From assembly GCA_000004985.1 (NCBI GenBank), contig GG738889.1: 64,000 nt of DNA. The stretch is one strand, 5' to 3'. Of this stretch, positions 1-63,361 are shown one piece after another; position 1 is the stretch's first letter; every line of letters starts with the position of its first letter. Under the pieces are notes generated by a model that was not told the origin of the DNA, searched no databases, and saw only the letters and a program-made list of their open reading frames with translations. The position numbers and the translations under genes were made by a program. This DNA comes from Naegleria gruberi. Its lineage: Eukaryota.

Positions 1-3000
1 GAAAGAGAATTGTAATATTGGAAGTCATTGAGAGGAAATTGAGTAGAGGAGAGAGGATTAGTCTCATTGAAGAATTTGTTGATTACTTTGAACAAAATGG
101 AACGTGGGATTCAATTAAGGATGATGTTATTATTCTAGAAGCGGAGGAGAGAAGATTGAGTGGAGGATTATCTTTTCGAAGTTCTCTTGATGGATTACCA
201 GCAGGTGCTGGAGGAGGTGCTGCCACTGATGTAACTGGAGGAACACAAGCAACAGCAACCTCATCATCCTCTTCTTCAATGAGTACCTTCACAAAGATAC
301 AGACAGCAATTTCTAATATCGGAATTGCCTTACAAGAAAAGAGGAGAGTTAAGTCGAAAAAATCCTTCATCTTTTCGATAGTAATGAATATATGGATGAT
401 GTGGACAAGTATTTTCATGCCCTCGCTGGANNNNNNNNNNNNNNNNNNNNNNNNNNNNNNNNNNNNNNNNNNNNNNNNNNNNNNNNNNNNNNNNNNNNNN
501 NNNNNNNNNNNNNNNNNNNNNNNNNNNNNNNNNNNNNNNNNNNNNNNNNNNNNNNNNNNNNNNNNNNNNNNNNNNNNNNNNNNNNNNNNNNNNNNNNNNN
601 NNNNNNNNNNNNNNNNNNNNNNNNNNNNNNNNNNNNNNNNNNNNNNNNNNNNNNNNNNNNNNNNNNNNNNNNNNNNNNNNNNNNNNNNNNNNNNNNNNNN
701 NNNNNNNNNNNNNNNNNNNNNNNNNNNNNNNNNNNNNNNNNNNNNNNNTGGATATGCCATTCTGTTTACAAGTTTGATTGTTCCCTACTTGATGGCTGGC
801 TCTTTAGATTGCGACTCTAACAGTAATGTTATCATTGATGAGGTAGCTTATCAGGTTTTGAAAAGATTTCCCACACAGCCATGCTATCTCACTCCAAATG
901 TCATATTCTATGCTATTTTCATTGCATCGATACCATTGGCAGTGCTTACTGTTGCCATTTCAACCATGTTGGTGGCCAATCTCCATCCAATGAATACTTC
1001 ATGGTTTGCAATGCAACACAGTTTCTTTAAATTATCCTTTAATGTTGTGAATAGTACGAGTATATTCTTCCACTTTCTTATACCAGCTGAATTTGCGTAT
1101 GGAAGAGCTATTGTTCACATTGCTTTTGCTCTTTTGAACATTTACATTTTTTGGAAAATGATACCATACTTTAGAAGAATTGAAAATTCATTCTATTTTG
1201 GAGCTATTACTGGTCGATTGGGTTGTGCTGTTGGTGTTTTAATTTCCTCATTAGTTAATCCAACAGATTCCTCTGAATTGGGTCTTGAAATGATGGGAAT
1301 GACCTTGGGTATTATTCTTTTGTGCTATCTGGTTGGTTTTATTACTATGGAAGTTTACACTCGTTTGGTATTTAGATATGTTAGAGATGTTTTGGCAAGG
1401 AATTCAGAGAGGGAGAAGGAAGCTGTAATGATTTATCACATCTTTGAGGAGAAGGATAGATTGAGGTTTTTACAAATGTTTCTTCGATTTGCATTGAGAG
1501 GTAGTCATGATATTGCAGATTTGGCAACTTCATTTGTCAAGTCAGCTGCTGCCTCAAAATCATTCAATGATCCAGAGTTGTTAATTCTGGGAGCGATGCT
1601 TGCTGCCTATAGATGGGAAGACTATGGCTATTCTTATGCCCAAGTGTTGATTAGAAGAGCCAACAGAGCCAACATTCCATACGCGATTCGTTTCTATTTG
1701 GCCGAAAGATCAAGAGAATTGGAAATTGACCAAACTAAGGATATCAATTCTGGACACAACTTTGTAGAAATCAAACATATTGTTGAGAAGGTTGAAAAAA
1801 AGACAGAAGAGCTCAGATCTCTACACAAACATTTTTGGAAGGAGTTAATTAATGAAGTTCCTAATATGGGCAAGCTGGATCAAGTTAATAGAAGAATGAC
1901 CTCGCTTTCGAGTGATATAGAGACTACCTATTCTAATTTAATGACAAATTACTCAAGGGAGAGACAAGTGCTCAGAGGATACGCCACCTTTCTTGAAAAC
2001 TTCAAATTCGATAAGGATCTAGCTCACGAGCTTGTACAGGAAGTTGCCAAAATTGAAGAGGAGGAATCAATAAGAGTTAAGAGAAAATCCTCTGGTTTGC
2101 ACATTCCCTATAACAGTAAGAGAAAGTTTGAGTCGTACAGCATTAGAAAATCCATTGAAGAACGTCCTATACAACCACAAGCAGATCAAGTTGATGATTC
2201 ATTTTCTGGAGTGGAAACTCAACGTGATGTTTCTAAAAAAGAATCCTTATTCAGAAATGCAATTAGAAATGGTGGAAATTCCAAAGTAATACTTTCTTCA
2301 CTTGTAATATTTGGATTTTTCACACTTACATTTTTCCTCTATTACTTGATTTTTGGTGTATATATTAGTATGAACGCTGGTGAGCATGTTAGTAGTGCTT
2401 ATTATATGTGTAAACCATCAACATCAACCATTGGTTTGCTGAGAGAAATAAGAATGAAACAAAATCTTAATCAGGTGATGACACTATTTCCAGAAGCAAT
2501 AACAATTTCCCCAATTATGGTAAATATTTCATTAGAAGAACACAAGACAAGACTCAGTGAATATGATTCCTTTTTCAAACAAATTACAAAAGAAGCACAA
2601 CAAAATAGATTTACGAGAGAGCTCTACGAGATATTTACCAAACCAGATATTACTATTTTCGTTCCATCTGTTCCAAAAAATAGTGGAACTTTGGATTTTA
2701 CCACAACAGATCAGAAAAATGTTAGTGTATTCGAATTAATTAATATTATTTCTGAATCAGCTACATATTTCAAAAATTGGAAAGGTGCAGATTACAACAA
2801 CACAATCCAATCGTTTGAGTTTATGTACGTTTGGGATAACAAGTTGATTGCCAGAAATTCTTTTGTAAAATTTTGTGAATCTGCCATTGCTGCCAATTCA
2901 GATGAAACAAACCAATTTTCCTTTATATTGAATGTTTCTTATGGTGCTACTGCTGGTGGTTACTTGATCATTTCTATTATCTATTTGATTGTGACAAGAT

Positions 3001-5305
3001 ATCAAATGGCAGAAGTTCCCCATGTTTTGAACATTTTCAAAAATAACCTTTCGAAAAATGTTGTGGGAAAGATCTATCATGAGATGAATGAGAAGAATGA
3101 CGATGATGCCACAACTCACCTTCCAAAAACTTCATTGACCAGACCTAATAATTTATTCTTTCTTTATGGAGTTTTGGTTATAGTATCATTGATACTTGTT
3201 GGTGGTCTTATTCTCATTGAATCGAATGTTAATTGTACTGATTCCATTCAAACTTCACTAAATATCAAACATGGAACATCTGTTCTCAGAGTTATTCACA
3301 GAGCAAGTTTCAGAGTTGGAGAATATTTTGCTTATTTTGGTCTACCAAAAACCCATCTCAACAGTGATTACATGACCACCACAGCAGAGCTTGATGGATT
3401 TTTAACAGATATCAAATCCCTGATGGCTCAATTGTTTACTGATTGGACAGCTTTAGTTTACGGTTCTGGTGGATCTGATGTTAGTGTTGGTAAATATTCA
3501 ACAATTGACAGATTAATTCAAGGAGTATCTTCTTGCAGTGATAATTCCACAATGGATGATACAGAATTAGTGGATTTGTGGAAAAACTGTTATGGATTGG
3601 AAAGAATGATTTCAACCTTTACTACTGACGTTTCCAAACTAAACGAACAGGTATACAATCAAAATTATGTGAAGAATTTTGCAAATTTCTTAAATGGATT
3701 TTTGGATATCTTTGTTCAGACAAATATTCTTTCAGACCACTTGATCAAATTCTTGGATTTATTTGTAGAAAATTCATCTTCACCTAATTTTGAGATTACT
3801 GGTGTATTTGGTGCATTGTTTTGCTTGGTTTGCATCTTTTTGTTCTATTCAATGTTTAATACATTGCAAAATAATCATGCTCAATTGATGTGTTTGAGAA
3901 ATATGTTAAATTATGTTCCAGTTGATGCCTTGGATTCGAATGAAGTGGTTAGAAACTTTATTCTTTACAATGCCATTCCAAGTCCATTCTCCAAGGTCTT
4001 TAAGAGTAAGACCGAGAATCCAACTGATGAAAACTCAAAGGTGAGAAGTGTTTTGAATTCTTCTGTTGAGGGAGCCTTCATTGCAGATGAAAATGGTTTT
4101 GTAGAGCTGATTAATCCAGCAGCTCAAAATATTTTCGGATTCCAACAACAATCTGATGTGGTTGGTACTCCTTTCATTAACATATTCGATACTAAGGATC
4201 ATGAACACATCAAAAAGATTATTCAAACCATGAAGGATAGTATGAAATTGTCAAATCACAAAAATGGAGAAGTTGCTGAGGTGGATTGTGTAAGAAAGAA
4301 TGGAACACAATTCCCAGCTATGGTTAATATGTTTATTGTTATTTTTGATAATTCACCTAACTTGGTTTGTTTCTTGAAAGATGTCACATCAGAAAAGAAG
4401 CATAATGCTATAATTGCAGAAGAGAAGGCAAAATCTGATAGATTATTGAGAAATATTCTACCAGAGTCTGTTGCTGCTCGTTTGAAATCGGGTGATACTT
4501 TTATTGCTGAAAAGTTTGCAGATATTACTTGTTTCTTTAGTGATATGTAAGTATTCAAGTATCAATTTTTATTCGAATGATTTTTAATTATTTTCATAGG
4601 GTTGGATTTACAAATCTATCATCAGGATTGAATCCAAATGAATTGGTAGGCATGTTGAATACAATTGTTAATGGATTTGATGCCTTGACTGATAAATATC
4701 AATTGGAAAAGATTAAGACTATTGGAGATGCCTATTTCGTAAGTAATTTCAATCTCTTCTCATAATTTCTAACACAATATATTTCTATCATAGGCTGTTG
4801 GTGGTATTGGAAATACTCAATCAGATCACCCTGAGAGAACTCTTAGATTTGCAATTTCAACCTTTGATGTGATTAAGGATTTCAATATGAAAAATCCAAA
4901 TACTCAAATTAATATCAGATGTGGAATCAATACTGGTGGTTGTGTTGCTGGTGTAATTGGTACGAAGAAGTTTGCATATGATTTGTGGGGTGTAAGTTGT
5001 CAATTTATTTTACTTTTATTTGAATGATTCAGGATACTATTAATGTTGCTTCAAGAATGGAATCAAATTCAAAACCAGGCCGTATTCAAATATCACGATC
5101 TACTTTTGAAAGAGTTCATGATTTGAAATTTGATTTTGAAGAAAGAAGATTGGATATTAAAGGAAAAGGCCTTTGTGCTTGCTATTTGCTTCACCAAAAA
5201 CATCACGAGAATCCAATAATTGAAAAGAAAGTAGAGGACCCATCCCCTCACATGTCTAGTTCAGTTTCTGCAACTACGATTGCCAGTACAAATGGAACCA
5301 ATTAA
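1..5305 (+). CDS. Multi-pass membrane PAS-domain class III nucleotidyl (predicted adenylyl) cyclase, paralog 1. It has 4 exons: up to 18..4546, 4600..4738, 4794..4991 and 5033..5305. The 5' end may lie upstream of the window.
   Basis: A long ORF runs from 18 to 4546. It contains an N-terminal cluster of hydrophobic helices, further TM segments in the middle, and a PAS-like fold (SVLNSSVEGAFIADENGFVELINPAAQNIFGF...). It then has the cyclase signalling helix and catalytic motifs: LPESVAARLKSGDTFIAEKFADITCFFSDM|VGFT, KIKTIGDAYF|AVGG, DLWG|DTINVASRMES. Three introns of 53, 55 and 41 nt (4547..4599, 4739..4793, 4992..5032) have GTAAGT donors and TAG/CAG acceptors and restore the frame exactly. The stop is TAA at 5303..5305. 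The ORF crosses the N-gap 431..748, so the frame there is unverified. There is no in-frame stop upstream within the window. Confidence 0.85.
431..748. other. Assembly gap of 318 N inside the cyclase-1 coding region.
   Basis: A literal run of n. Its length is a multiple of 3, so the ORF track reads through it as X. Confidence 0.99.
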
Positions 5306-5310
5306 ATTAT

Positions 5311-6582
5311 TTACTGGTCTGTCAATTTTTGGATTGCTTGTTTGAGCTCTTTGATTTCGGCATTATTTTCGTTTGTCTTGTTAATCAGAGTCTTGATGGT
5401 TTGCATCAAAGACATTACCAGTTCTTGTTGTTGGCTTAACTGAAATTCTAAAAACTTATTCTCCTGTTTACATTGTTCAATATCTTCTCTCTGCTGTTCA
5501 ATCATGGAAATGAGTGTCAAGTGATCTTCCACTTCTTCTGTTGTGTTGTAATTTCTTGGTTGTTGCTGATTGTATTGTACACTATTTTGTCTTTCTGTGG
5601 TATTAAAAACCGATTCACTCTTATTTACACTATTTGACGAGGAAGAAGGTAAGCCTATCATTAATTCCTCTTGACCTATTTCTTCTAATAGATTTTCCAA
5701 AGCAATTTGGATTCCTCTGGTTGTTCTATAGATGGAGTAGTTCATTATCCTTTCAACATATTTCCTGATATTTTGTTGGTTATTTTCATTGGAACCTGTT
5801 TCTTGTGGCTCAGAAAATAAATAACACTGTTTCGAATCATCCACACTCATTGCATAAGATTTAATCAATTCGAAACATATTTGTGCAGCCAAATCAATAA
5901 GAGCCGAATCTTCACCATCATATTTTTCCAATAATTCCACAAGCCATTCCTTTCTGTACCTATAAATCAATCGCCACTGATCTAAATCTCTTGTCAGATT
6001 TGAACACTCGACCAGAATATCTTCACACAAAGTTAAATCCACAATACTCGAATCAAACGAATGTCTATTTCTTGCAATAATATCAAACAATTGATAAGGT
6101 TTTTGAATTCCAATCAAATACTGTCCATAACAATTCAAAACAGAACCTATCGTTACCTCCTTCAAAATATTAAAAGCAAATAACCAATCCACAATATTGT
6201 AAAAATCCTCATTCTCCTCCGAAGAAGATGCAGAACATTCACTCTTACTTGCTAAAGGTAACAAGTATTGCAAGTAGAGTGCATAATTTTCCAAATTTAC
6301 ATCATTCATAAAACAAGATTCATCATCATCAGCATCTCGTACAATAACACTCTTCAATAATTTCATTCCGAGATTATAAATTTGCTCAACGCTATTTTCC
6401 GAGTCATTATTGTCTTGTTGTTTAATTAAATTGGAAAATTCATTAGAAAATTGATTCCACAACAAATTGGCCAATGCATAATCTTCAGATTCAATAGCTA
6501 ATTTAATTTGATTTTCTAATGAATTTTCAACCGATTGTATTTCTTCTTGTGATGGTGGTTGAATAAGTTCAACTAAAGCCAT
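5311..6582 (-). CDS. Hypothetical protein of 423 aa with an acidic N-terminal half and a C-terminal coiled coil. It is a single exon.
   Basis: The ORF is uninterrupted, with ATG at 6582..6580 and TAA at 5313..5311. The C-terminus is heptad-like (...EQCKQENKFLEFQLSQQQELVMSLMQTIKTLINKTNENNAEIKELKQAIQKLTDQ). I recognised no known domain. Confidence 0.6.
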   Translation of the reverse strand: MALVELIQPPSQEEIQSVENSLENQIKLAIESEDYALANLLWNQFSNEFSNLIKQQDNNDSENSVEQIYNLGMKLLKSVIVRDADDDESCFMNDVNLENYALYLQYLLPLASKSECSASSSEENEDFYNIVDWLFAFNILKEVTIGSVLNCYGQYLIGIQKPYQLFDIIARNRHSFDSSIVDLTLCEDILVECSNLTRDLDQWRLIYRYRKEWLVELLEKYDGEDSALIDLAAQICFELIKSYAMSVDDSKQCYLFSEPQETGSNENNQQNIRKYVERIMNYSIYRTTRGIQIALENLLEEIGQEELMIGLPSSSSNSVNKSESVFNTTERQNSVQYNQQQPRNYNTTEEVEDHLTLISMIEQQREDIEQCKQENKFLEFQLSQQQELVMSLMQTIKTLINKTNENNAEIKELKQAIQKLTDQ

Positions 6583-6618
6583 TTTTTAATTATTATTATT
6601 TATTGAGTAAGCAACAGT

Positions 6619-8069
6619 TTACAACTTGTTCAAGATCTTATCAGCAGCCTTTTGCAAACGGTTAGTCTTGAGGTCTCTCTTTTCCAGCAATTCTCTCTTT
6701 CCTTGCATCTTCATCTTGGCTCTATCTCTACAACAGCAGCAGAAGATACAGAAACCAAGGATACAAGCAAAGACGGCACAAACAACAATGACAAGAATGG
6801 AAACACCAACAGCAATATAAATACCATTTTCAGCAATAACAGTCAAAAGATAGAATGGATCAACACTACACTTTCCAGAATCAGATTCAGCATATGGATT
6901 GTAAACGTAGGCCTTTGGATTTGTACAACCAGTAGCACATTCTTCACCAGTACAGGCGATTCTAGATCTCAAAGTGGCAACATCAGAAGCTGCAGGTGGT
7001 TCGAAAGAAACAGTCTTAAGACTTGGCTAATTTAAAATTAATTGAAAAGTTCAAATCAAAACAACTTACCAAATAGAATGGAACTGGAGTACCAAGTTGA
7101 ACGCTCTTGGCAATGTTGGCCTTCAAAGGATCCTTTGGAATAACATATTGTTCAGTATTTTGGACAACTGGAGCAACAAAGTCCAAAACCTTACTTCTAA
7201 TTTCAGACATGGCAGTTTCAATTGAACGAGCCCCAGATGGACACCAAGCTGGATAAGCAGTAGTGTCAGTACATGTTGAACTTCCTCCAAAGTTATCGAA
7301 TTTGAAACCATCTTCAGAGTAGAATCTACTACAAGTGTACTTGTAACTAGAAGCATCACTGCTACAATCGCAAGTTGAAAGGAGGGTTTGACAGTGGTCA
7401 ATATTCATAAAGTGTTCAGAACAGGATCCGAGCTTAGTGAAAAGATCTGGCAACTTTGGAACAATACATGTAAGCAAACTATAATTTTCAATTGAGAGAG
7501 TCTTTGTTTGACATGATTTTCCGTAACTATCAATAACACACAAGCCAGAGTTTGCACAACAAAAGCCACTACATGACTTTCCAATTTCAGCAAGATAGGA
7601 CAAGTAATTATTAGCAACACAACTAATATAACCATTCTTTGGGAAAGCATTTGCACAATAAGAATACTTCAACTTTTCAATACAGGATGGACAACTTGTA
7701 ACACCCTTTCCAAGCAAATAGGCTTGCATACTGTTGAAGGAATCTATACAGATCATTATATTCATCACATCATCATATTGAAAACCTACCTTCAAGGAAC
7801 TTATCCATATATTCAGCATAGGTAGAGTATGTTCCGTTTCCTGTAACGATTGGTTTTGAGAAGAAAGCCTTATCGGTATATCTTCCGTTCATCATTGAAC
7901 AGAAAGTAAGATTTGAAATTATTGTTTCTCCACAATGCAATTGATCACCCATACTAGCAACCAAATTTTTACATTGACCCTTAACGAGTGGTATATTATT
8001 AATCAAGGCTAATAAAACAATAACCGCAACAGCGAAAATTTTCAATGCCCTCATTGGAATTTGATTCAT
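6619..8069 (-). CDS. Cys-rich type I membrane glycoprotein of about 453 aa. It has 3 exons: 8069..7790, 7743..7070 and 7026..6619.
   Basis: It has a signal peptide (MNQIPMRALKIFAVAVIVLLALINNIPLVKG) and an ectodomain with about 40 Cys. A single TM helix (IYIAVGVSILVIVVCAVFACILGFCIF) is followed by a CCCC juxtamembrane motif and a short basic tail. The introns are 46 nt (7744..7789, GTAGGT...TAG) and 43 nt (7027..7069, GTAAGT...TAG), with phases that restore the frame. Confidence 0.7.
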
Positions 8070-9640: not shown

Positions 9641-12600
9641 TCAATATCACATCAATAGAAGGTCGTTTACCTGGCTCATGACTCCACATCTGGCGAATCA
9701 CTTTTGTCATTTCAAAAATCAATTCATGGTGAATTACTTGTTCCTTATCAAGAAATTCCTCACACCATTTCTTACACTCTTCACAAGTTGAGAATGGAAT
9801 GATTGGCCTCAAATTCTCCTCACAAACACTCTTATGGAAGTGATACGAACTACTAAATGGTGTTGGTTTGGTGATTTTCAACTTTTTGAGAACGTTTGGA
9901 TCTGAGCTATGGTAAGGTTCAATAATTTCGAATAATAATTGCCACATAATGATGGCCAAACTGTAGATATCAATAGAACGGGCGTCCTCTCTCTCAATTT
10001 CACCAGAGAAAAGCTCCGGAGCCATAAATGAGCTGGTTCCAATCTGACTGGTAATTGCTGAAATTGTGTGAGAACAAAAAGCTCGTCCTAATCCAAAATC
10101 ACACAGTTTGGCAGTTCCACTTTTATCGAGAAGGATATTGGCTGGTTTCAAATCTCTATTCCACAAATGAAAGATTATTTTAGGTGAAATTTAGTATTAA
10201 TACATACCTGTGGACAATGAAATTCGGTTCCAAATGATGCAAATAATAAATTCCACTCACAATGTTCCTCAATATTGCCAATTTTTCATTGAGAGTGCAT
10301 TTGGAATAGCCACGTTGCATGGATGCAATCATTGCCTCTAAACTCTTATCCATGCACTCCATGGCAATGAATCTCTTTGTTGGTGTCGATGAAACACCAT
10401 AGAAATTGATAATATTTGGATGCCTTAATTTGCTTAATAAAATTGCTTCCACTTTGAAATCATTTTCTGAAATACTCAAATTATTCAAATCGAATACCTT
10501 GACTGCAATTGTCATTCCATTGAATTTGGTTGCAAAAACAGAACCCATTCCACCTTCTCCGAGTCTCTTGATTGGTTTGTCCATATTGAGTTGTTCTATT
10601 GGAATGATGAATTTATCTGCCTCTTCCACATAGTAAGAACTAGATCCCATACTTGATTCATAATGGTCCAACAATCTTTCATCTAAAACCAGATCAGTTT
10701 CAGTCAGTTTCTTATTCTTTCGTTTTACAGAAATATACGAAATAAAGATAATGAAACAAATGGCAGTAACGATGAGTAAAACAATGGCAGATGAGAGTCC
10801 CAATCCGAGGGCAATCGTGTTGATACTACAATCCTTTCCAAAGTAGGAAGATTGACAAAGACACTCATCCTGTTTTACACATGTTCCATGTCCTGAGCAA
10901 GCACTTGATCCTGATTGACCAAAACAAATAGCAACCCCACAATCTTTTCCTGTATATCCACTATTACAAACACAATTATCTGGTGCTGTACAAGATCCAT
11001 TTCCATGTGAGCAAACTTCCACAGATGTCTTTGGATAATTAAAGCAAATTGGTAATTGACAGTTATTGCCAAAAAAACCTTGATTGCAAGAACATTGATT
11101 AATATCGAAACAATTTCCGTTTCCACTACACACTGATTCTGAAATATTTGCTGGTATTCCAAAACATATTGGAATACACATTGTCAAATCTCTACTCAAA
11201 AGGTAACCCTCTCTACAAAATGGTGTCAGTTGTCTCACGACATTTTGAGTAGAATCTGATAAGTAAATCGATCCAGAACTAGGGGAAATTGTAAATCCTT
11301 GTGGAGATGCCAAATAATCACTCGTTGCCAAAATTTCATTCAAATCCAATTCTTTCACAGTTGAATTTCCAGCAATTGTGTAAACTAGATTAATTCCATT
11401 TCGTCTACTTATTTTCCTAATCATTGCATTCAGTGAATCAATGAAAATAATATCCACAAAATCAGGAGGTACCAATTTCACTATAGTTGGATAATTAAGC
11501 TCTGCCTGTTCAGCAATTCCATCTATGTATCCAGGATTTCCACTGCCTGCAATGGTGGAAATTGATCCATTCACATGAATCATTCTAATTCTATTATTAT
11601 TCGAATCGGCGAATATAATTTCATTATCCAAATTGATGGCAATTCCGGTTGGCTGAGCCAAAAGTGCAGACTTAGCATCATTTGAATCTCCATTAAAACC
11701 ATATCCCTTTCCTGCAATTGTTGAAATTATTCCATTTCTATCAATCTTTCTAATCTTGTTATTTCCAAAATCGGTCACATAAATTTCTCCATTGAGAGGA
11801 GAAACAGAAACCGCATAAGGTTTAATTGAAGCATAGGATGCCAATCCCTTATCACCTATTCCACCAACTATAGTCTTGACGATACCAGTTTTAAAATTGT
11901 AAAGTTTCACCAAATTACTGTAAGTATCAGCAATTGCCAGATATTGAGTTCCACCACTTGGTAACTGGAGATATCTGACGCTTGAAGGATAGCTGAGCTT
12001 GGATTTGATTCCCAATCCCTCCTCAAATTCTCCACCTCCAATCAATGTATCAGCAATTCCAGTAGAAATCGAGACAGTCCTAATCCTATTATTATTAGTA
12101 TCAGCTATAAACATGGTATTCTGTGAAATGGTTATACTTTTAGGGAGATAGAGTTCCATATTTCTAACAAATCCACCGTCACCTCCATTACCAATTTCAC
12201 CTGTGCCTGCATAGGTATCTGTAACACCATTAATAGTGGCATATCGAATTCTGTGATTACCCGTATCGGCAATGCAAATCATTTGGCTATCTACCACGAC
12301 AACATCCTCAGGAAAGCTCAATTGAGTTTCAGTTGATAAAATATTATCACCATTGAATCCTTCATGTCCAGAACCAGCAACTGTCTTTACCATTTGAGAT
12401 GTACTACTGCCCAAGTAAATTGATCTAATTCTATGATTTCTAGAGTCGGCAACCAGTAAAACTTTATCAGCAGAGTCAATATGAATTCCTTTTGGCTATA
12501 GAGTTTGTAAATATTGCAAATTATCAAAAATTTCAAACTTACACTATTAAATGTTGTGTTCAACAGTGTGTTATCTCCATTAAAACCCTTCACTGTTGGT

Positions 12601-14393: not shown

Positions 14394-14413
14394 TTTTTTC
14401 ACTCTCTTACAAG

Positions 14414-34641: not shown

Positions 34642-35426
34642 CTTTATAAAATTAAAATTGTTCGGTTTAAAACACCAAGTTCTCCAACACAAATGTTTCT
34701 CTTGTTTTTTTTAAGGCAAATCCCGCACTAAGATATTTCAGTTGTGAGGATGTTAATAATTCAATAACGAAACAAACCTGTGTAATAAATTAAATAGTGT
34801 GAGGAATAGTTTGATGTTTTTTTTCACTTGGTCAATGTTGAGGAGAATAGTTGATGGCCCTCCATTTACCAACGGCCTCAATCCATTCACATTGTTGATG
34901 CAACACAATGGTGGTGAGGAAGATATTAATATCCTTTAGGTTGTATGGTCTCCTGAATGCCACTGTATAACAAACCGAAAAACGTCAATTTTAATTAGGA
35001 GAGCTTCACAAATTTGACACCACATTGTCAGAGACAGTTTTGGCAAATCTCACAACATTGTGCTTAGAGCGCATGTATTCCATAATATTGTATAATATAA
35101 CATTGTCTTAGGAGTGGTGTTAAATAGCTTTCAATTTTTTTGGAGATTTCGTTGAAAATCTAACTGCTGTAATGCTGCTGTTAAAAAGAAAATCAATGAT
35201 ATTACAGGTAGTTATTCATTAATTAAGTTGTTTCTTTTGATAGAAGGAATTGTATTAACAAATAGAGTATTCACAGACCATTGTAAGTAAGGAACAAATG
35301 GTTTTATACGGCAATCGTTACAGAATTGCCAAACCTGAGGGACAGAGCTGTTCGATAATGAATCTTCCAAAGAATCAAGGACTCTTTACTCCTATTATTC
35401 CGTAAACTATGAAATTACAAATAAGT

Positions 35427-54501: not shown

Positions 54502-54578
54502 CCAGCCACAACCTCCAAAAATCAAAATTAAAACTCTTTATTGTACAGTAAATAAGTAAATAATATTCCGTTCCAAAA

Positions 54579-56126
54579 TTAAAGGGCTATACTGCCATTT
54601 TCATCCAATGTTTCGAAATATCCGCTAGAGTTTGCTGGTCTTGTATACATATCACATTTAGTTTGTTTGATTACTTTCATGGTTTCTCTGAAAAAGTTCT
54701 TGGCTCTTGTCTTGACAATCTTGTGTACTATAAAGTTTGGAAGCGACCCTCTAAGATCTGTACCAATTAATTCAATATATTTACAATGCTCTTTTCCATC
54801 TACCATGACAGGCATGAAAATCCAAGCACCAATATCCAGGGCCTTAATTGCATCCTTCTCCGACAATTTGTAATTTGGTGGTTCACAAGATTTCTTTGCG
54901 ACAATGTACAACTTGTCAGTAGTGTCATAAACCATAGATTGAGCCAAAACATAGTACCTATTCTTAACAGGCCACACCAATTTGTAGACCTCATGGGTGA
55001 GAACAGTTGCCAATCTTGTCTTGCCAGAAAGTTTGTTCAAAGAAAGGAGGGAATCTGATGAGGCACTATGATTACTATGTGTACTATGTGGTGAGGCTGG
55101 TGGTGAATGGTTGAGTGATGACAGGGACTCACTACTCTTGTATTTTTTTGGAGGTGATGAAAGTAAATCTCCTCCAGACTTATTCAGATACCCCACAATT
55201 TTGATACTATCCAAATTCTTATCAGATGCCAATCTAATTGTAGTATTTGTCATAATATTCATCATTTGTTCCACAGTATAAGGGAAAATGACTTGAGATT
55301 TGGCAAAGTAAATACCCTTCTTACTTTCTTCCTCTCCCAGAATGTACTTGTTCGATGATAAAAATGCAAAACAAGTATCCTTACTATAGATGCAATCCCA
55401 GAACTTTTCTTCCAATACATGTTGTTTGATCATTTTGATTTGGTCAACTGTAATTTCACAACTCTTCATATCCATCAATGATTCCACAAAACAGCTGTGG
55501 GAGAGATTTCTTACAGTACCAATTTGGTTCAAGAATTGTTTGCTCTTCTTGCAAACAAATTGTTTGAATGTGTCAGATTCCAAAAACATTGGAAAGACGT
55601 GTTCTTTCATATTGACTAGAATATAGCTCTCTGCTTTCTTAAGCGCTTCTTCACATTCTTGAAGATCAGAACTGTCAATATTCACCTGTTGAAGAGTTGA
55701 GTTACTGGCATTTGAAGAATTTGTTGGTGTTTTTAGAGTAATCTTGTCGTTCAGATCCATAAAGCTCTGTTCCATAACTTCCCTTGATCTTTGAGGTAAA
55801 TTCAACTCGTGAACAGAATTACCACTGAAAAAAGTAATGAAAATTTGTTGCAACGCATTCCACTTATTGGCAGCAGATCGCTTTCTATAATACTCGTTAA
55901 CTTGATCTAGAAACATTATACTCTCCTCGCAATGAATAATTTTCATGAACTGCAGCAAGGCTTGTTTAGTTTCTGGTTCGTCCAGAAATGCTTCATATGA
56001 AAAACAATAATCTCTCAACGAGAGTAATAGTTTCTGTTGTTCAGTTGTGTATGTAGAGAGAGGAATGTTCGTGGTAGTAGCCGAGAAGGATTTATCAACA
56101 GCCAAGGTTGATGTTGTTGCACTCAT
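54579..56126 (-). CDS. RGS-domain plus START (StAR-related lipid-transfer)-like domain protein of about 515 aa, single exon.
   Basis: The RGS-like segment is …LLSLRDYCFSYEAFLDEPETKQALLQFMKIIHCEESIMFLDQVNEYYRKR…IFITFFSGNSVHELNL. The C-terminal half ends in a START-type C-terminus (…KYIELIGTDLRGSLPNFIVHKIVKTRAKNFFRETMKVIKQ). The first ATG in frame is at 56126; the ORF track starts at a TTG at 56240. Stop is TAA. Confidence 0.6.
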   Translation of the reverse strand: MSATTSTLAVDKSFSATTTNIPLSTYTTEQQKLLLSLRDYCFSYEAFLDEPETKQALLQFMKIIHCEESIMFLDQVNEYYRKRSAANKWNALQQIFITFFSGNSVHELNLPQRSREVMEQSFMDLNDKITLKTPTNSSNASNSTLQQVNIDSSDLQECEEALKKAESYILVNMKEHVFPMFLESDTFKQFVCKKSKQFLNQIGTVRNLSHSCFVESLMDMKSCEITVDQIKMIKQHVLEEKFWDCIYSKDTCFAFLSSNKYILGEEESKKGIYFAKSQVIFPYTVEQMMNIMTNTTIRLASDKNLDSIKIVGYLNKSGGDLLSSPPKKYKSSESLSSLNHSPPASPHSTHSNHSASSDSLLSLNKLSGKTRLATVLTHEVYKLVWPVKNRYYVLAQSMVYDTTDKLYIVAKKSCEPPNYKLSEKDAIKALDIGAWIFMPVMVDGKEHCKYIELIGTDLRGSLPNFIVHKIVKTRAKNFFRETMKVIKQTKCDMYTRPANSSGYFETLDENGSIAL

Positions 56127-58009
56127 GATTAGTTGTTGGTTGAGTACTGACGTTTTTTTGATATGATGAAATTGACTTGAAATAGTCCTTACTTTGAGAA
56201 TCTGCCAGGCGCAAAATCCAACTCTATAGACGTTAGACAAAGTATTATTTGGGATTCGTATGGAAAATGTTCTTTCAACACTTTTCTCTTTTCGTTTCCT
56301 AATCCTTTAGAATAACAAGCTGTTGGCAAGGAAAGTTCTTTTTGAGTAGGTGGTCAAACCCGTACGTTGAAAACCTTTCAATTTTTGATTTTTCTCAATC
56401 TGTCAAAGAGATACTAGTCTCCTTTGGTTTTCTTATCTTGCAACAACTGTTGAGAAAAATTAATGTCGTGTTGATGAAAAATCACCGCCCAGAAATGTTG
56501 TCGTTTTTTTGTTGTGAAGATTCCTCTAACACACGCTGTCAGCACCTATCGGCAACTATCACGAACAAATTAAAATATTATAATTCAAACCTGAGCAGTG
56601 CCGGTGTTTAACACCATCCTTGCCAAAGTCCTTAAAGCCTTTTACTAAAAAGCCTGCATACAAAAAATTTGCTTTCCTTACTCGAACACTCGTTGGGCAT
56701 CATCAGTGATTTCGCTCCTTTTTTTTTTAAAGTTGGACATGACGAAGTTGGTGAGCGGGAAAGTGTTTCTGTTTGAGAAAAAGATGCGGTGCATCTATTT
56801 TACAAATGTCATCAACACTTGGACATATTGGTATGATGAAGTCAGTTATTCTTATTAGTGAGTGTTTTTCACACTTTCAACATATTGAGATGATTTCTTG
56901 TATTCTGAGAAATGAAACATTTACATGAAATTGTTGGGAGTGGAGAAAGGTCAGAAGTCAAAATAGGTTTTGAATCATTTGAATCATTCCCTGAGAGAGT
57001 CACATTCCTTACCAGCCTTATTTCTTCTTCGACAATAAAATTCCTTGATCATATCCTTATCAAACTCTGATTCGTAAATATTCACATCTGATAATAATGT
57101 CAATTTCTTATCCAAATTGATTTTCCAAGAAATAGACAAGCTGAAACTGTATGAAAAAGCAGCAGAAACTACTCCATAAAACTGAAAACCCTGTTTTGGG
57201 CAAGAAATAATTAATTCTGATGGAATAATTAAAGATAAAATACAATTATCAAAAATTGAGAAATGTAAGGCATTATTGGTTCGTAACGTGTGATATTTGA
57301 GATTTCTACTCACACGATTATTGCATGATCCATGAAATAATATTAAATCTCCATGCTTCCCAGCACTCGGGTCAAGGTAATAAATTACTCTCAAATAAAA
57401 CATGATCACATCCAAATTCTAGGAATATTCTGATCACCTCATTGGTAACAGTAGTCATTGATTGAAATAATAAGCTTGTTCACTAGAAGCCAGTGTCTAA
57501 TCTCCGAAGAAGAAGAGAAGACTGAGTAGTGATTGCCCTCCATCATTGTCCGTTACATTAATACAACTTGAAAAAAAATAGAAATGATTTGTGCTCCTGC
57601 ATCATCTCTCTCAATGCTGAACTTATCTTCACATTAATGGAATTTACTAATATTAGTTAGTTTCCGAATACTTATTAAAAAGTCTAGAAGTGTGTTCTTC
57701 CTATTTCATGCATGAAACCTCATAATCCTTCAATTCTATCACTACCCGATATCAAGAAAGCTTCTGATGAGCAGTGATGGAACATATTCATCATCTGATC
57801 AAGTTTTGGCAATTCAACATTTCAAAACAGTAGAGAGAGGTTCAATGAAATTACGTTTCCATCCATTCTCCTACCATGTCCAGTAATATCATTGGCCATT
57901 ACTCGGAAGACATCAAACATTGTAATTTTAAAATGTGAGAGTGTCCAATGAAACTCTCAGATTGTACAATGAACCACAAAAACAACAAGAAAAAAGGTTT
58001 CATCATCAT

Positions 58010-61000
58010 ATGAGTACGAATCCATACCTTCTGCCCACTTCTTCTACAAGTATGTTTTCATTAGGAGAGGTAGCATCAAGTAGTCAGAATGTACTTGCAG
58101 AACAATCATCATCACACTATTCGATGGGAGCAACTGGGAATGAGTATAATCCCTCAAAAGCTGGTACCATGTCTCATACTGGCTCTGAAAGTATTAAAAG
58201 TGCTGATACACTATCAACAACAAGTGAGGGAGGAATTAGAGGTCAAACCAAATTGCTAATTACCACAACTTTGGTCAGTTTGCAAGATAGCTCACCAAAG
58301 AAAGGATGGCGATGCTATGTTTCCTATCTATTGGTTTTTATATACATGTTTTGGTGTCAGGTGTTTGTACCTACGTTGGGAAATTATGGTTGGGGAGAGT
58401 ATGGAACCTATGTATTGATTCATGTTCTCAATTTTCCAAATACCTTTCTGGTTCATCTCATTCCATTCTATGGATATTTGGCCATCACTATTGCAACTAT
58501 ATTATTTGTATTAACCATGGCAGTTTTGTATATTGTGGGAGTAAGGTTGGCAACGAAACCAAACAAGCATTTTAACAAGTTCAAGGTTTTGGTTTACTAT
58601 CTCAGTTTCTTTGTCAAGACTTTCTCTCTCCCTATTGTATATATTTTGGTTGGTTTATTGGATTGTAATTCTATTGCCTATGATGTAGATGGTGATCCAA
58701 TCCCTTCTTTGAGAAGATATAGCTCACAATCTTGTACAGACGATTTGAATATTATCATGATGATTATATCAGTAATTTCCCTTTTGATACTGTTACCTGT
58801 TTATTTCTTTTCAGAATCTATAACGGCAAATTCCAATCCACACAATAGAACTCCACTGATGGTTGAAAGTTCTTTTCCAACTTCAATTATTGGAGTAATT
58901 TCATTGATACAACTAATTATTGGCCAACTGATACCAAGCAATTACATGTACATATCTGCTGCCTTACAATTATTACTCAGTGTGATAGCAACCATTATTG
59001 CTGGTTATTCACTTCCTTGTTTCAGAATAATTGATAATTCTCTTTATTTTGGTATGAATTTGGCTAAAGTAGGAGCAAGTATTGGATCCGTGGTGGCGTC
59101 CTCTCTTAATACTGCAAATATATTGAATACATCAGATCCAACACTGGGCTGGTCTCTCATGACCTTGGGATTGATGATTCTATTCTTTGTTATTGGAGTG
59201 GCTATTTTGGAAGTTTTCCAAAGAATTCAACTGAAAAGAGCTAGAAGTTTTATACTGAACTGGGTTCAACAAGATGAAACAGCTATTAACTCTGATCCTA
59301 TTTCTCCACTCATTCTCATAGAAAAGAATGCCATGAATATATATGGCGATGCAGAAGATGCCAAGCTGTTGGGTCTATTGAGACACATGTTCAAGTGTTC
59401 CATTCTAGAGGCAAGGGATGCCAAAGGCACTTCATACACTAATAGTGACTTGTCTTCAGCATTTGTGAAGGGAGCAGCTAGTCACAACTCATTCAATGAC
59501 CTCAAGTTATTGATTTATTCGTCAATATTATTGGAGACTAAATGGAATGAAAGCAATAATACTGTCTTTTCTCTCAACCTACTCAAACGTGCAATGAAAC
59601 AACATCCAAATGGATTAGAGCAAATTACTATACGGGAGAGAATTAAGCAAGTTGAGAACTTTTCTCAAACCAACTTTAAGAATTTAACCAATTTTGAATT
59701 GAGCTCTCAACTCGACTTGCTAGAAAAGAATCAAAACATTCTTCTAACTTTGCACAGAAACTTTTGGAAGGAGTTGGCATCTGAAAAGATCAATTATGAT
59801 TCTGTTGAAAAAATCAATCGTGCCATTCATTCTCTCACTATTGATTGTAGGACAACACTTCAAAATTTAATGTACAACCACAAAAATAACAAGACAATTT
59901 ACAGATTATATGCCAATTTCATTGAAAGTTTTGAGTTTGACAGCGACTTGGCCCAACAATACTATAACGAAGCCAATTCTATTGAAGAGGAGGAAATGAA
60001 AAGAAAGAGAAGAATGTCAACCTTTAGTAATAATGGAAAGAGAGGTGGTAATCGTGTTGTTCCTGTCATGAATGAATACAAATTTGGAAATGCAGAGGCA
60101 GTTGAAGATCAAGATTTAGATGAGATGGAAAGTGCCTTTGATAATCCAAAGGTAAAAAAGGAGCAAGTTTTCAAAACAGCCATCTCAAATCAAAGATCCA
60201 ATAGATTCGTATTCACATCAACTCTATTATATGGCTTGCTATGTTTCAGTTTTATCACTGCATCGTTAGTACTTAGTGTTTATTACTCTAAAACTTCCAA
60301 GAACAATATTCCTTACTTGCAACAGGTTTGCGCAGTTAGTGTAGCTCCATTCTCAGTATTTAGAAATGTCAGGGCTGGTCAGAACTGGATGAACTTTTAC
60401 ATGCTTTTTGAAAATGTTTGGCCAGCTATTAATCCTGAATCAAATACCAAAACAAGATCAAAATCAAGCTATGTCACAAGTCACAAACAAAGAATGTTAG
60501 ACGATTTGGCTTATTATGATACTCTCGTTTCTACAGCTCAAAGTAAGATATTCGATAGTGACTCATATATCGACTATTCAGAAAATGTTTATCCATTTGC
60601 ATACCCAAATGAAGACAAACAGTTTAACTATAATGGAGCTTTAACTATTAGAAATATTTCAGTTCAAGAAATTACCAATAATATGATCAAGTACACTAAG
60701 AAATTCTACGCAGACGTACCAGACACATATTTATTGGCCTCTGAAGCTATTAATATCACATATGCCAAGAAGAAACTCAATCTTGACTTGGCAGCAAATT
60801 CTACCTATTTTAATCCATTGGCAAACTATAATTTTATGGTTTTGTATAGTAATATTGAGAGAGCTAGTAATGCCTATGATGCATTTTGTGGAAAATATCT
60901 CGATAGATCAACAAGTACAATTAATGATACCATCAATCTTTTGATCTATTATACTGTTACATTGGTTGGTTTCTTCCTATTGTCAAGCTTTGCCTATCTG

Positions 61001-63361
61001 ATATTTATGCTTGTTGAAATGACTTCAATGAAGAGAATAATGAAACTCTATGAGAAGCAATTGAGCAAAGATGTTATTGGAAAGATCTATCATACCTTAG
61101 ATAAGAAGACAACAGAAGTTGCTGATTCTCAATCTAAAGGTATTTCTCTTAATAGAATCAAACCAAGTGTCATACTTATTGGCTTGATTTTACTTATCAT
61201 TCTAGTTACAGTAACCTGTTTGGTTTTATTATTTGTTGAAAGTTATGAAAATTCAATTACATCATCACAGGTGATGGCAAGTGTAAGATTGACAGTTCAA
61301 GCAGCTGCTATTTTGCAAAGATTATCGTTTGCAGTTGGAGAAGTAGCTACATACTTTGTTGCTAGTGAGACTTCCAATACCAAATCACCTCTAGCCAGTT
61401 CTTTCCCTAGAAAGGTAACCTTTGGAGATCCAAGTTTATATGGAATAGATATTGCAAGTTTACAAGCATTTTTAGTGGCACGTATAAACACAAGACTTCC
61501 TCAATTGAGTAGTATGTGGTCAAAATTAATTTATGGAGATGCAGCATCTGGAAGAGAAGCTATTCTTGGTAAATTTGATGATGTTGATCAAGTAATTGTG
61601 ACTGGAATTACTAATTGCACAGATTATATGGCCAAAAACAATATTACATATGGCCTTGAAACTAGTTATCAGTATTGTGTTGGATTTGAAGAATTATTTG
61701 GTAATTATTTGACAACTGTTGCTCAGCTCGTTACAGATTCAAAGAAACAGTATGCACTTCAACAAGCTGCCCTTAGCACTACAACTCTTCTTCCAACGGA
61801 TGATTTACAATTGAGACATAACAATGCTATGAGAATGGCTTTATCCTTAACAAGCAAATTTGTGAAATTTATTCAAGAATTTGTGGATGCAACCTCTAGT
61901 GCTTCCTACATTATTGCAATCATTAGTACAATTATCAGCTACTTGCTATGTACAGTCTTCTTCTTTTTCCTTCAGAGTACTTATCAATCTTATGATGGTC
62001 AATTACACACTTTGAGAATAATGGCTCACTACATTCCAGTTGATGTTCTTGATAGAAATGAACAATTGAAGAACTTTATTCTATACAATACTACCAAGAC
62101 AGAAAAGAAGAAGAAATCTCTGCTCTCTAAGGAAGGCTTTGTTGGAGGTTCCTCTCTTGAAGATTTGAAGAATATTTTCAATTCCAACATTGAGGGAACC
62201 ACAATTTGTAATAGCAAGTTTGAAATTGAATTTTTCAATGCAGCTGCCCTCAAAATGTTTGGTATGCAATCAATTGATGTGTTGGGAGTTTCTATGGGAA
62301 ATTTGATTGAGCCAACACAAAAAGATGAGCTCATTAATTGTATGGATCATTTAATGAAGAAAAAGACAGGTGAAAATAACCTAAAGAAGGATGAAATTCA
62401 AACTAATGATCAATGCGAAGTTTTAGAATTAGACTGCATCAGAAGAAATCAAACAAAATTCCCATGCAAAATAACTTTAATTGCTGTTAAGGTTAGTGAT
62501 GGAATAGGTCAAAAGCCAATCCTAATCGTCAGTCTTAAAGATTTAACATCTGAAAAGAAACAAAATGCACTATTGAGTGAAGAGAAACAAAAATCAGACA
62601 ATTTACTGAAAAACATATTACCAATGAGTGTTGCTTCGAGATTAAAGAGTGGACACACTTTCATTGCTGAAAAGTTGGATGATATCACTTGTTTCTTCTC
62701 AGATATGGTTGGATTTACTGCAATCAGTAGTGGACTTCAAGCAACTGACCTTGTGATGATGTTAAACTCTATTGTTAATGGATTTGATTTACTAACAGAG
62801 AAGTATGATTTGGAGAAGATCAAAACTATTGGAGATGCATACTTTTGTGTAGGAGGACTTCCAGGTGCAGCAACAAGTGATCATCCAGAACGAGTTCTCA
62901 AATTTGCTATTGAAACATTTGGTGTCATTAACGATTTCAATGCCAATAATGCTGAAAGGAAATCGGTGACTGATAATCAAGAAGAATATCAACCAACTGA
63001 AGAACAGTCATCGCCTATCAAGGCAAAGATCAATATTCGAGTTGGAATTAACACAGGAGCAGTTGTGGCAGGTGTTATTGGAATGAAAAAGTTTGCCTAC
63101 GACTTGTGGGGTGATACAATCAATACTGCATCTCGTATGGAATCAACATCAAAGAATGGAAGAATTCAAATTTCACGATCAACCTATGAAAGAGTTTTCG
63201 ATTTGGGTTATGAATTTGAGGAAAGAGAAGTAGATGTGAAAGGAAAAGGAATTGTCAAGACTTATCTATTGAATGATAAGCATCATAGATATCTCAAAAA
63301 CAATCCACTAATGTATTCAGCACAGAAGAGTGCTTCTTTGTTATTCACTTCCCAACAATAA
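58010..63361 (+). CDS. Multi-pass membrane PAS-domain class III nucleotidyl (predicted adenylyl) cyclase, paralog 2, about 1783 aa, single exon.
   Basis: It has the same architecture as the gene at 1..5305. That is an N-terminal TM cluster, a conserved juxtamembrane block (PCFRIIDNSLYFG vs PYFRRIENSFYFG), a PAS-like fold, the signalling helix (LLKNILPMSVASRLKSGHTFIAEKLDDITCFFSDMVGFT) and an uninterrupted catalytic domain (KIKTIGDAYFCVGG…DLWGDTINTASRMES). The first ATG is at 58010; the ORF track opens at a GTG at 57935. Stop is TAA. Confidence 0.85.
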   Translation: MSTNPYLLPTSSTSMFSLGEVASSSQNVLAEQSSSHYSMGATGNEYNPSKAGTMSHTGSESIKSADTLSTTSEGGIRGQTKLLITTTLVSLQDSSPKKGWRCYVSYLLVFIYMFWCQVFVPTLGNYGWGEYGTYVLIHVLNFPNTFLVHLIPFYGYLAITIATILFVLTMAVLYIVGVRLATKPNKHFNKFKVLVYYLSFFVKTFSLPIVYILVGLLDCNSIAYDVDGDPIPSLRRYSSQSCTDDLNIIMMIISVISLLILLPVYFFSESITANSNPHNRTPLMVESSFPTSIIGVISLIQLIIGQLIPSNYMYISAALQLLLSVIATIIAGYSLPCFRIIDNSLYFGMNLAKVGASIGSVVASSLNTANILNTSDPTLGWSLMTLGLMILFFVIGVAILEVFQRIQLKRARSFILNWVQQDETAINSDPISPLILIEKNAMNIYGDAEDAKLLGLLRHMFKCSILEARDAKGTSYTNSDLSSAFVKGAASHNSFNDLKLLIYSSILLETKWNESNNTVFSLNLLKRAMKQHPNGLEQITIRERIKQVENFSQTNFKNLTNFELSSQLDLLEKNQNILLTLHRNFWKELASEKINYDSVEKINRAIHSLTIDCRTTLQNLMYNHKNNKTIYRLYANFIESFEFDSDLAQQYYNEANSIEEEEMKRKRRMSTFSNNGKRGGNRVVPVMNEYKFGNAEAVEDQDLDEMESAFDNPKVKKEQVFKTAISNQRSNRFVFTSTLLYGLLCFSFITASLVLSVYYSKTSKNNIPYLQQVCAVSVAPFSVFRNVRAGQNWMNFYMLFENVWPAINPESNTKTRSKSSYVTSHKQRMLDDLAYYDTLVSTAQSKIFDSDSYIDYSENVYPFAYPNEDKQFNYNGALTIRNISVQEITNNMIKYTKKFYADVPDTYLLASEAINITYAKKKLNLDLAANSTYFNPLANYNFMVLYSNIERASNAYDAFCGKYLDRSTSTINDTINLLIYYTVTLVGFFLLSSFAYLIFMLVEMTSMKRIMKLYEKQLSKDVIGKIYHTLDKKTTEVADSQSKGISLNRIKPSVILIGLILLIILVTVTCLVLLFVESYENSITSSQVMASVRLTVQAAAILQRLSFAVGEVATYFVASETSNTKSPLASSFPRKVTFGDPSLYGIDIASLQAFLVARINTRLPQLSSMWSKLIYGDAASGREAILGKFDDVDQVIVTGITNCTDYMAKNNITYGLETSYQYCVGFEELFGNYLTTVAQLVTDSKKQYALQQAALSTTTLLPTDDLQLRHNNAMRMALSLTSKFVKFIQEFVDATSSASYIIAIISTIISYLLCTVFFFFLQSTYQSYDGQLHTLRIMAHYIPVDVLDRNEQLKNFILYNTTKTEKKKKSLLSKEGFVGGSSLEDLKNIFNSNIEGTTICNSKFEIEFFNAAALKMFGMQSIDVLGVSMGNLIEPTQKDELINCMDHLMKKKTGENNLKKDEIQTNDQCEVLELDCIRRNQTKFPCKITLIAVKVSDGIGQKPILIVSLKDLTSEKKQNALLSEEKQKSDNLLKNILPMSVASRLKSGHTFIAEKLDDITCFFSDMVGFTAISSGLQATDLVMMLNSIVNGFDLLTEKYDLEKIKTIGDAYFCVGGLPGAATSDHPERVLKFAIETFGVINDFNANNAERKSVTDNQEEYQPTEEQSSPIKAKINIRVGINTGAVVAGVIGMKKFAYDLWGDTINTASRMESTSKNGRIQISRSTYERVFDLGYEFEEREVDVKGKGIVKTYLLNDKHHRYLKNNPLMYSAQKSASLLFTSQQ

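Follow-up and report, generated by a model that had tools for sequence, protein, structure and literature searches.

A family of predicted membrane-bound PAS-domain adenylyl cyclases in Heterolobosea, with turnover of short introns, viewed from two Naegleria gruberi paralogs

Results

Two cyclase genes and their exon structures

We analyzed a 64,000-nucleotide stretch of Naegleria gruberi DNA (contig GG738889.1, assembly GCA_000004985.1), referred to here as the window, in which two genes encode large multi-pass membrane proteins with a PAS domain and a class III nucleotide cyclase domain near the C-terminus. An earlier reading of the letters alone (the original prediction) had placed both genes on the plus strand about 52 kb apart, and this placement is confirmed: copy 1 ends at 5305 and copy 2 runs from 58010, with 52.7 kb between them. 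Searching the window by tblastn with the catalytic domain returned just these two copies and no third cyclase. GC content is 30-38%, and the long open reading frames (ORFs) are interrupted solely by very short GT..AG introns. The gene structures are as follows:

1..4546, plus strand: first exon of copy 1, within an ORF from 18 to 4550; its 5' end is beyond the window edge and it spans the gap at 431..748
431..748, unstranded: assembly gap in copy 1 within the cluster of transmembrane (TM) helices; its 318 N amount to 106 codons and keep the frame
4547..4599, plus strand: copy 1 intron 1, 53 nt, phase 2, within the Met codon of FSDM/VGF; GTAAGT..TAG
4739..4793, plus strand: copy 1 intron 2, 55 nt, phase 0, at DAYF/AVGG; GTAAGT..TAG, with CTAAC inside; used by the public model P0019
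4992..5032, plus strand: copy 1 intron 3, 41 nt, phase 0, at DLWG/DTIN; GTAAGT..CAG; unspliced in P0019
5033..5305, plus strand: last exon of copy 1, coding for DTINVASRM with the transition-state Asn and Arg; TAA stop at 5303-5305
58010..63361, plus strand: copy 2 coding sequence (CDS), one uninterrupted ORF from the first ATG at 58010 to a stop ending at 63361; intronless, 1783 aa

The public gene model for copy 1, P0019 (1520 aa), lies on the same 348,446-bp scaffold as the public protein for copy 2. Residues 58-137 of P0019 correspond to window positions 3-242, and its first residue lies 62 aa before the window edge. Of the gene first described as 1..5305, the end and the exons hold, but the 5' end lies upstream and the 318-nt gap at 431..748 interrupts the sequence; in copy 2, the counterpart of this gap is a stretch of roughly 100 residues within the TM cluster. 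Joining 18..4546, 4600..4738, 4794..4991 and 5033..5305 gives an in-window CDS of 5139 nt that stays in frame and terminates in ...DLWGDTINVASRMESNS..., leaving the C-terminus of the cyclase intact.

All three copy 1 introns have the form GTAAGT..AG, with a GC content of 19-24%, lengths that are not divisible by 3, and stop codons within each; intron 1, at 19% GC, has stops in two of the three frames. The hexamer GTAAGT occurs exactly three times in the 5.3 kb of copy 1, every time at the start of an intron, and is absent from copy 2. The exact sites given in the original prediction find independent support for introns 1 and 2 in P0019, which splices both. At intron 3, P0019 instead reads past 4992 and ends in ...DLWGVSCQFILLLFE at a stop codon (5025-5027) inside the intron; the last 90 residues, with the transition-state Asn and Arg, are therefore missing from the model. 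The 318-N gap, too, is bridged as an 'intron', and the first TM helices are lost with it. When intron 3 is spliced out, the Pfam Guanylate_cyc profile is covered from position 3 to 182 of 183 in a single stretch, and because splicing restores the coverage of the catalytic domain in this way, we prefer the three-intron model to P0019. Judged from the DNA sequence, the three introns are real. With the defects of P0019, copy 1 would count as an inactive cyclase in surveys.

Copy 2 had been described as open across all 5.3 kb, and it is indeed a single ORF without GTAAGT; its product matches P0001, the 1783-aa NCBI entry 'predicted protein [Naegleria gruberi]', with 100% identity and coverage, which marks the window as nuclear DNA of N. 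gruberi. The start at 58010 is itself a prediction. In the region upstream of this ATG (57760-58009), the frame is open back to 57935, and there is a short ATG-initiated ORF at about 57769-57888. We considered an upstream exon joined through GTAATT...CAG at about 57924-57962 and set it aside as a weak candidate; the donor is non-canonical and no convincing frame could be built.

A shared membrane, PAS and cyclase architecture

The two proteins are 32.7% identical over 1592 residues (E = 0), a likeness far beyond chance, and both lie above the Pfam thresholds for TPR_TmcB (cutoff 27 bits), for PAS_9 (27 bits) as well as PAS, and for Guanylate_cyc. The original prediction had described a multi-TM N-terminus, large inter-TM loops, a PAS fold, a signaling helix, and a single class III domain in both; Pfam, hydropathy and AlphaFold2 models agree on this architecture, whose modules are located as follows:

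1755..2069, plus strand: copy 1 TmcB-type TPR region, Pfam PF25474, 67.3 bits, E 1.6e-18
4068..4388, plus strand: copy 1 PAS domain, PAS_9 E 1.6e-14, 54.5 bits; PAS E 8.6e-8
4506..5194, plus strand: copy 1 class III catalytic domain, split by the three introns; PF00211 E 8.2e-52, 175.9 bits, profile 3-182 of 183 (spliced protein)
58313..59209, plus strand: N-terminal TM cluster of copy 2, about 7 helices by hydropathy (residues 102-400); AlphaFold2 predicted local distance difference test (pLDDT) 81.9
59690..59998, plus strand: copy 2 TmcB-type TPR region, predicted to be cytosolic; PF25474, 49.8 bits
60206..61966, plus strand: copy 2 four-TM module with two helical-bundle loops of about 220 aa each, predicted to be extracellular
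62192..62548, plus strand: copy 2 PAS domain, PAS_9 E 3.1e-14, 53.5 bits
62558..62653, plus strand: copy 2 cyclase transducer or signaling helix (EEKQKSDNLLKNILPMSVASRLKSG), aligning with the helix that precedes the C2 domain of AC9
62666..63274, plus strand: copy 2 class IIIa catalytic domain, PF00211 E 7.5e-52, 176 bits, profile 3-182 of 183

We modeled copy 2 in two parts with AlphaFold2, using alignments of 17-19 family members, and obtained a confident model for each. The N-terminal part (residues 90-725) has a pLDDT of 81.9 and a predicted template modeling score (pTM) of 0.77; for its TM cluster there was no significant relative among solved structures, and the TPR part alone matches 14-3-3-like or TPR-like folds. 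The second part (residues 720-1400; pLDDT 83.7, pTM 0.75) consists almost entirely of long helices that are continuous with the TM helices. Hydropathy puts these later TM segments at residues ~739, 983, 1054 and 1301, where they flank both loops, and the loops hold conserved Cys residues and an NCT motif. Because four TM helices lie between the TPR region and the PAS domain, both loops would be extracellular, with the TPR region, the PAS domain and the cyclase all in the cytosol. Bacterial extracytoplasmic sensor domains of the NIT and 4HB_MCP types resemble the loops at the level of fold class only; sequence identity is 5-9%, and no ligand-binding residues can be matched.

The PAS domain shows no cofactor signature across 31 family members, neither a Cys motif of the LOV NCRFLQ type nor a conserved His, and a PDB sequence search found no solved PAS domain that matches it at E < 0.01. 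Between the PAS and catalytic domains, the transducer helix aligns SDNLLKNILPMSVASRLK with ADWLLRNIIPYHVAEQLK of AC9, and just before the catalytic domain the C-terminal helix of HNOBA is matched below threshold (E 0.01). This helix, with the consensus KD.T.EKKqn.ll.eEKkkSe.LL.nILP..VA..LK, is the best-conserved stretch of protein in the family.

Catalytic residues and predicted activity

In both copies, a single PF00211 stretch per chain holds the full set of six catalytic residues. In copy 2 these are D1565, K1605, D1609, D1698, N1705 and R1709, and D1565, D1609, N1705 and R1709 align with residues of AC9 in C1 (FADIVGF, TLGDCYY) and C2 (TVNIASRM); the metal-binding Asp and the Asn and Arg residues of copy 1 match those of copy 2 once intron 3 is spliced. 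The Lys, base-specifying Asp, Asn and Arg of this hexad occupy the positions known as K938/D1018/N1025/R1029 in AC2 and K296/D365/N372/R376 in Rv1625c.

Both assignments made in the original prediction are borne out by the AC9 alignment. The proposed metal Asp residues (FSDM, IGDAYF) lie in FFSDMVGFT and TIGDAYF, which align at the metal-binding Asp residues of AC9 C1, and the Asn and Arg of DTIN and ASRM align in C2. The Lys of EKIKTIGD and the Asp of YDLWG, proposed to specify the base, are not misassigned; EKIKTIGD and YDLWGDTINTASRM align with EKIKTIGA and YDIWGDTVNIASRM of AC9 C2, placing the Lys and the Asp (YDLWG versus YDIWG) at the base-specifying sites. Of 33 family members, 30 retain the D-K-D-D-N-R hexad and 31 the Lys/Asp pair. 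The best sequence matches in the PDB are AC9 (E 8e-62), AC8, AC5 and mycobacterial Cya/Rv1625c, and the top ones are all adenylyl cyclases, of class IIIa.

With one complete domain per chain, the enzyme is expected to be a homodimer with two symmetric sites, and because the base-specifying residues are Lys and Asp, its substrate is expected to be ATP. The original call of a homodimeric adenylyl cyclase is a sound prediction by analogy, well supported by homology and by the retention of the hexad.

We infer the following scheme for dimerization, substrate, topology and signal flow. The chain would run from a TmcB-like module of about seven TM helices and a cytosolic TPR region, through four TM helices with two outward-facing helical-bundle loops, to a cytosolic PAS domain, the transducer helix and the catalytic domain. 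Input may arrive through the loops, the PAS domain, or both, and the signal would pass via the PAS domain and transducer helix to the catalytic dimer. Like Rv1625c, this dimer would be arranged head to tail with two equivalent active sites, and its product, given the Lys and Asp at the base-specifying positions, would be cyclic AMP (cAMP).

A family found in Heterolobosea

Word-index protein searches returned 6 matches for the full-length query and 3 for the N-terminal query; the family set was taken instead from an exhaustive HMMER search of representatives, with the 1197-aa membrane part of copy 2 as the query against 1.84 billion proteins. Only 132 cluster representatives matched, and nearly all of the full-length ones carry a PAS domain and a cyclase. 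N. gruberi contributes 13 named members and N. fowleri and N. lovaniensis several, and Willaertia magna and Acrasis kona are also represented; one from N. gruberi is annotated as 'membrane bound adenylate/guanylate cyclase with PAS domain'. Distant matches to the TPR region only were found in Chlamydomonas-like algae, and Naegleria also has stand-alone proteins with the TM and TPR parts, such as N. fowleri P0037. By these searches the family is restricted to Heterolobosea, and copies 1 and 2 are among at least 13 paralogs in N. gruberi.

The original prediction treated the two genes as a pair, a framing that does not survive comparison with the rest of the family. The nearest relative of copy 2 is P0009, with 51% identity over the matched part, whereas copy 1 comes closest to N. 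lovaniensis P0011 and N. fowleri P0015 (about 40%). The original prediction had also proposed a phylogeny with intron positions mapped as a check; carried out as a neighbor-joining tree and a 12-gene intron map, this puts the copies in separate clades, each with genes from other Naegleria species. Copy 2 groups with P0009, P0008, P0028 and N. lovaniensis P0007, and copy 1 with N. fowleri and N. lovaniensis genes. Because other Naegleria species are represented in each clade, the duplication would be older than the divergence of the sampled species. Judged by sequence comparison, copies 1 and 2 are old paralogs from different subfamilies and not a recent pair.

Loose clustering of paralogs, as in the window, seems to be common, with the closest relative of each clustered gene lying outside its cluster. 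On VFQX01000027.1, about 32 kb separates N. fowleri P0144 and P0148 (303013-309585 and 341137-347547), and N. gruberi P0028 and P0054 share a scaffold. In N. lovaniensis, the annotation divides a relative of copy 2 (PYSW02000005.1; L003, ~7262-7275) between two genes, one for a PAS protein of 1502 aa and one for a cyclase of 213 aa; a one-base frame shift just past KKQNALL leads to a TGA, and reflects either an assembly error or a decaying gene.

Introns in the catalytic domain

We surveyed introns in 12 genes, namely ten loci (L001-L010) from N. fowleri, N. lovaniensis and Willaertia together with copies 1 and 2, by exact protein-to-DNA threading and manual reading, and projected them on one alignment. 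The 196 codons corresponding to copy 2 residues 1548-1743 contain 19 distinct intron positions. The contrast between the copies noted in the original prediction is real but not peculiar to this pair. The sites of introns 1 and 2 are found in none of the other 11 genes, and the site and phase of intron 3 are common to copy 1 and N. fowleri P0144 (L007 5542-5602), a member of a different clade. An intron at GxKK/FAY is present in five genes, including clade-mates of copy 1, and missing from copy 1 itself. N. fowleri P0015, in the clade of copy 1, is fully intronless like copy 2, and an N. lovaniensis gene in the clade of copy 2 has five introns. Between the orthologs P0010 (N. lovaniensis) and P0139 (N. 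fowleri), four of five catalytic-domain introns are common.

Introns are concentrated in this domain: 26 of 44 fall within the 11.5% of the coding length that encodes the 3'-end catalytic domain (nominal binomial p ~4e-14, a value that assumes independence and ignores shared descent). Intron-poor genomes are usually biased toward 5' introns, the opposite of the pattern in this family. Gains must have occurred, because a history of loss only would require an ancestor with about one intron per ten codons, which is implausibly dense. Introns 1 and 2 are probably gains in the lineage of copy 1, and intron 3 is probably old, with parallel insertion as the other option. The distribution of sites indicates that short introns are gained and lost often in the catalytic domain of this family, and that the contrast of three introns to none is one instance of this family-wide turnover.

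Introns 1 and 3 share the 16-mer TTTTATTYGAATGATT (4567-4582 and 5014-5029) at similar distances from their 5' splice sites, with two matches against 0.06 expected. We considered intron transposition as the source and rejected it: the likeness ranks second among 528 pairs of family introns with a score of 27 against 26, 26 and 25 for others, and 40 of 5000 shuffles reach that score. A stronger likeness exists between the introns at ASRM/EST of N. lovaniensis P0011 (L001 6457-6511) and P0010 (L006 ~5717-5774), which have a local score of 43 where other pairs reach at most 27; at this site the ortholog of P0010 in N. fowleri lacks an intron (L009 ~5460-5480). The pattern points to gene conversion or to transfer of an intron from one paralog to another, or else to a recent loss in N. 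fowleri.

A bolder reading is that the exons of the catalytic domain form a hot spot where short spliceosomal introns (36-99 nt) are still being gained and lost, with introns 1 and 2 as recent gains in the N. gruberi lineage and one N. lovaniensis intron perhaps copied between paralogs. We advance this tentatively, as a possibility that we would not bet on at even odds.

Alternative explanations

Several other accounts of these genes deserve consideration. P0019 could be correct, with intron 3 retained and copy 1 encoding a truncated, catalytically dead protein or decaying as a gene. The public model does read through 4992 to the in-frame stop, and at 41 nt intron 3 is the shortest of the three. 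But the candidate intron is bounded by GTAAGT and CAG, the frame downstream of it encodes 90 conserved residues (DTINVASRM and the remainder of the Pfam domain) with no disablement, N. fowleri P0144 has an annotated intron at the identical position and phase, and introns of 36-42 nt in Willaertia show that such lengths are normal in the group. Retention of intron 3 is, in our judgment, very unlikely. More improbable still, to the point of being hardly credible, is the idea that copy 2 is a retro-copy of copy 1 or a recent duplicate that shed its introns. The original prediction raised a retro-copy origin because copy 2 is fully intronless over 5.3 kb, and the two genes do share a strand and a scaffold. 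With only 33% identity between the proteins and no poly(A) tract past the stop at 63361, however, retroposition from copy 1 is a poor fit. The copies cluster with different relatives, and we identified no close parent gene for copy 2. Nor is intronlessness a special mark in this family, since N. fowleri P0015 is also intronless. In copy 2 the lack of introns is put down to loss in its own lineage, possibly by a cDNA-mediated route.

As for activity, the products could be guanylyl or dual-specificity cyclases. PF00211 spans both activities, receptor guanylyl cyclases (the ANP receptor, GC-C) and rhodopsin-guanylyl cyclase are likewise strong matches, and several public names read 'guanylate cyclase domain-containing'. 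Guanylyl cyclases, however, have Glu and Cys at the base-specifying positions, whereas 31 of 33 members of this family have the Lys/Asp pair of adenylyl cyclase C2 domains and Rv1625c, and the top solved matches are adenylyl cyclases without exception; we consider GTP use quite unlikely. The intron pattern, for its part, could reflect nothing but differential loss from an intron-rich ancestor, with copy 1 having kept three old introns. Six positions are common to different species, at least three of them between paralog clades (1591, 1695 and 1702 in copy 2 numbering), and P0010 and P0139, with four of five introns shared, show that positions can be stable. Against this, at least 19 introns would have to fit into 196 ancestral codons, a density of about one per ten codons that would be several-fold above that of any known eukaryote; near-misses one or two codons apart (1616/1617, 1695/1697/1698, 1709/1711, 1721/1722) are better explained by repeated insertion or sliding; and introns 1 and 2 are seen in none of the other 11 genes. 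Loss alone is thus an unlikely history.

Our preferred reading, to which we assign a probability of roughly 75%, is that both genes belong to a multigene family, confined to Heterolobosea, of multi-pass, receptor-type class IIIa adenylyl cyclases expected to act as homodimers, that the two are old paralogs, and that the introns of copy 1 are real, in a domain where short introns come and go often. A number of points weigh against it. The gene products and their activity are predictions from DNA. The choice of ATP is drawn by analogy from two residues, and class III cyclases include exceptions to the base-residue rule. The orientation in the membrane, with the loops outside and the TPR region, PAS domain and cyclase inside, follows from hydropathy and an odd/even count of TM helices, and the number of helices in the N-terminal cluster could be 6 to 8. 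The helical-bundle matches of the loops are generic, with designed bundles and spectrin repeats scoring similarly, and the PAS sequence, with neither a cofactor motif nor a solved match, points to no nameable ligand. The tree is a quick neighbor-joining tree without support values; the 12-gene intron survey represents N. gruberi by the two copies in the window; and a common intron site could be a parallel insertion and not common descent.

Comparison with known cyclases and TmcB

A close parallel in catalytic organization is with the mycobacterial cyclases Rv1625c of Mycobacterium tuberculosis and Cya of M. intracellulare, which also have a single domain with all six catalytic residues, a transducer helix and the Lys/Asp pair (structures 5o5k, E 1.4e-45; 7yz9, E 2.7e-44; 4p2f, E 8.3e-44). 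Rv1625c differs in having a compact 6-TM anchor and no PAS domain. The Naegleria proteins are eukaryotic and four times larger; they cross the membrane with about 11 TM helices, include a TPR region and the two ~220-aa loops, and carry a PAS domain before the transducer. With the transmembrane adenylyl cyclases AC9, AC8 and AC5 they have in common the motifs FxDxVGFT, EKIKTIGDxY and YDxWGDTxNxASRM, as well as the pre-catalytic helix that aligns with that of AC9 C2. Those enzymes, however, carry two complementary, degenerate halves per chain with 2 x 6 TM helices, while the Naegleria proteins have one complete domain that combines C1-type and C2-type residues.

Among PAS-regulated class III cyclases, such as cyanobacterial CyaB1 and the LOV or BLUF photoactivated enzymes that include the Naegleria NgPACs, a PAS-type sensor likewise sits directly before a helical linker and a class III domain. 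Enzymes of the CyaB1 and NgPAC type are soluble or have simpler anchors, and the PAS domain of the present family has no flavin (LOV) or heme signature. The TPR region, in turn, resembles that of Dictyostelium TmcB and TmcC (PF25474; 49.8 bits for copy 2 and 67.3 bits for copy 1). To our knowledge TmcB has no cyclase domain; the likeness is to the TPR profile, and in Naegleria a TmcB-like module is fused to a PAS domain and a cyclase in one chain. In Dictyostelium, TmcB is credited with regulating the cAMP pathway during macrocyst formation and sexual development (PMC8516963; PMC12750705).

Gene neighborhood

The stretch between the two cyclase genes is rich in surface and signaling genes, namely those at 10183-14402, 27526-34692 and 35430-36797, listed here together with other neighbors:

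10183-14402, minus strand: receptor with NHL/teneurin-like, EGF and protein-kinase domains
14417-20977, minus strand: BLTP3-like bridge lipid-transfer protein, 2187 aa
27526-34692, minus strand: giant protein with G8, CEMIP beta-helix, EGF and Temptin domains and Asn/Ser/Thr-rich repeats; a second assembly gap lies at 32699-33165
35430-36797, minus strand: another NHL-repeat protein
44051-45872, plus strand: EF-hand protein adjoining a mitochondrial carrier
46597-47805, minus strand: cytochrome P450 fragment, probably with introns
51356-52966, minus strand: protein with 8 DUF4116 repeats
54582-56240, minus strand: protein with RGS and START domains

Discussion

The genome paper of 2010 reportedly counted 108 cyclases in N. 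gruberi, and we know of no membrane PAS cyclase of Naegleria that has been characterized. The repertoire of Naegleria is unusually large, and has been put at 'at least 81' cyclases (PMC9928731). Because public annotation already covers the genes and the general class to which they belong (PMC9928731), the novelty of the present analysis is limited; what is new is the corrected gene model for copy 1, the description of the fusion of a TmcB-like module with a PAS domain and a cyclase, and the pattern of intron turnover. Overall this is an ordinary gene-family finding, and it does not overturn current understanding.

The fixed combination of a TmcB-like module, a PAS domain and a predicted adenylyl cyclase offers a Rosetta-stone hint that TmcB in Dictyostelium, which genetics links to cAMP signaling, may exert its effect on a cyclase directly. 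A small, testable case of intron turnover is provided by the map of intron positions. If the catalytic domain does turn out to be a hot spot of intron gain and loss, the family would lend itself naturally to studies of the origin of new introns in an otherwise intron-poor protist.

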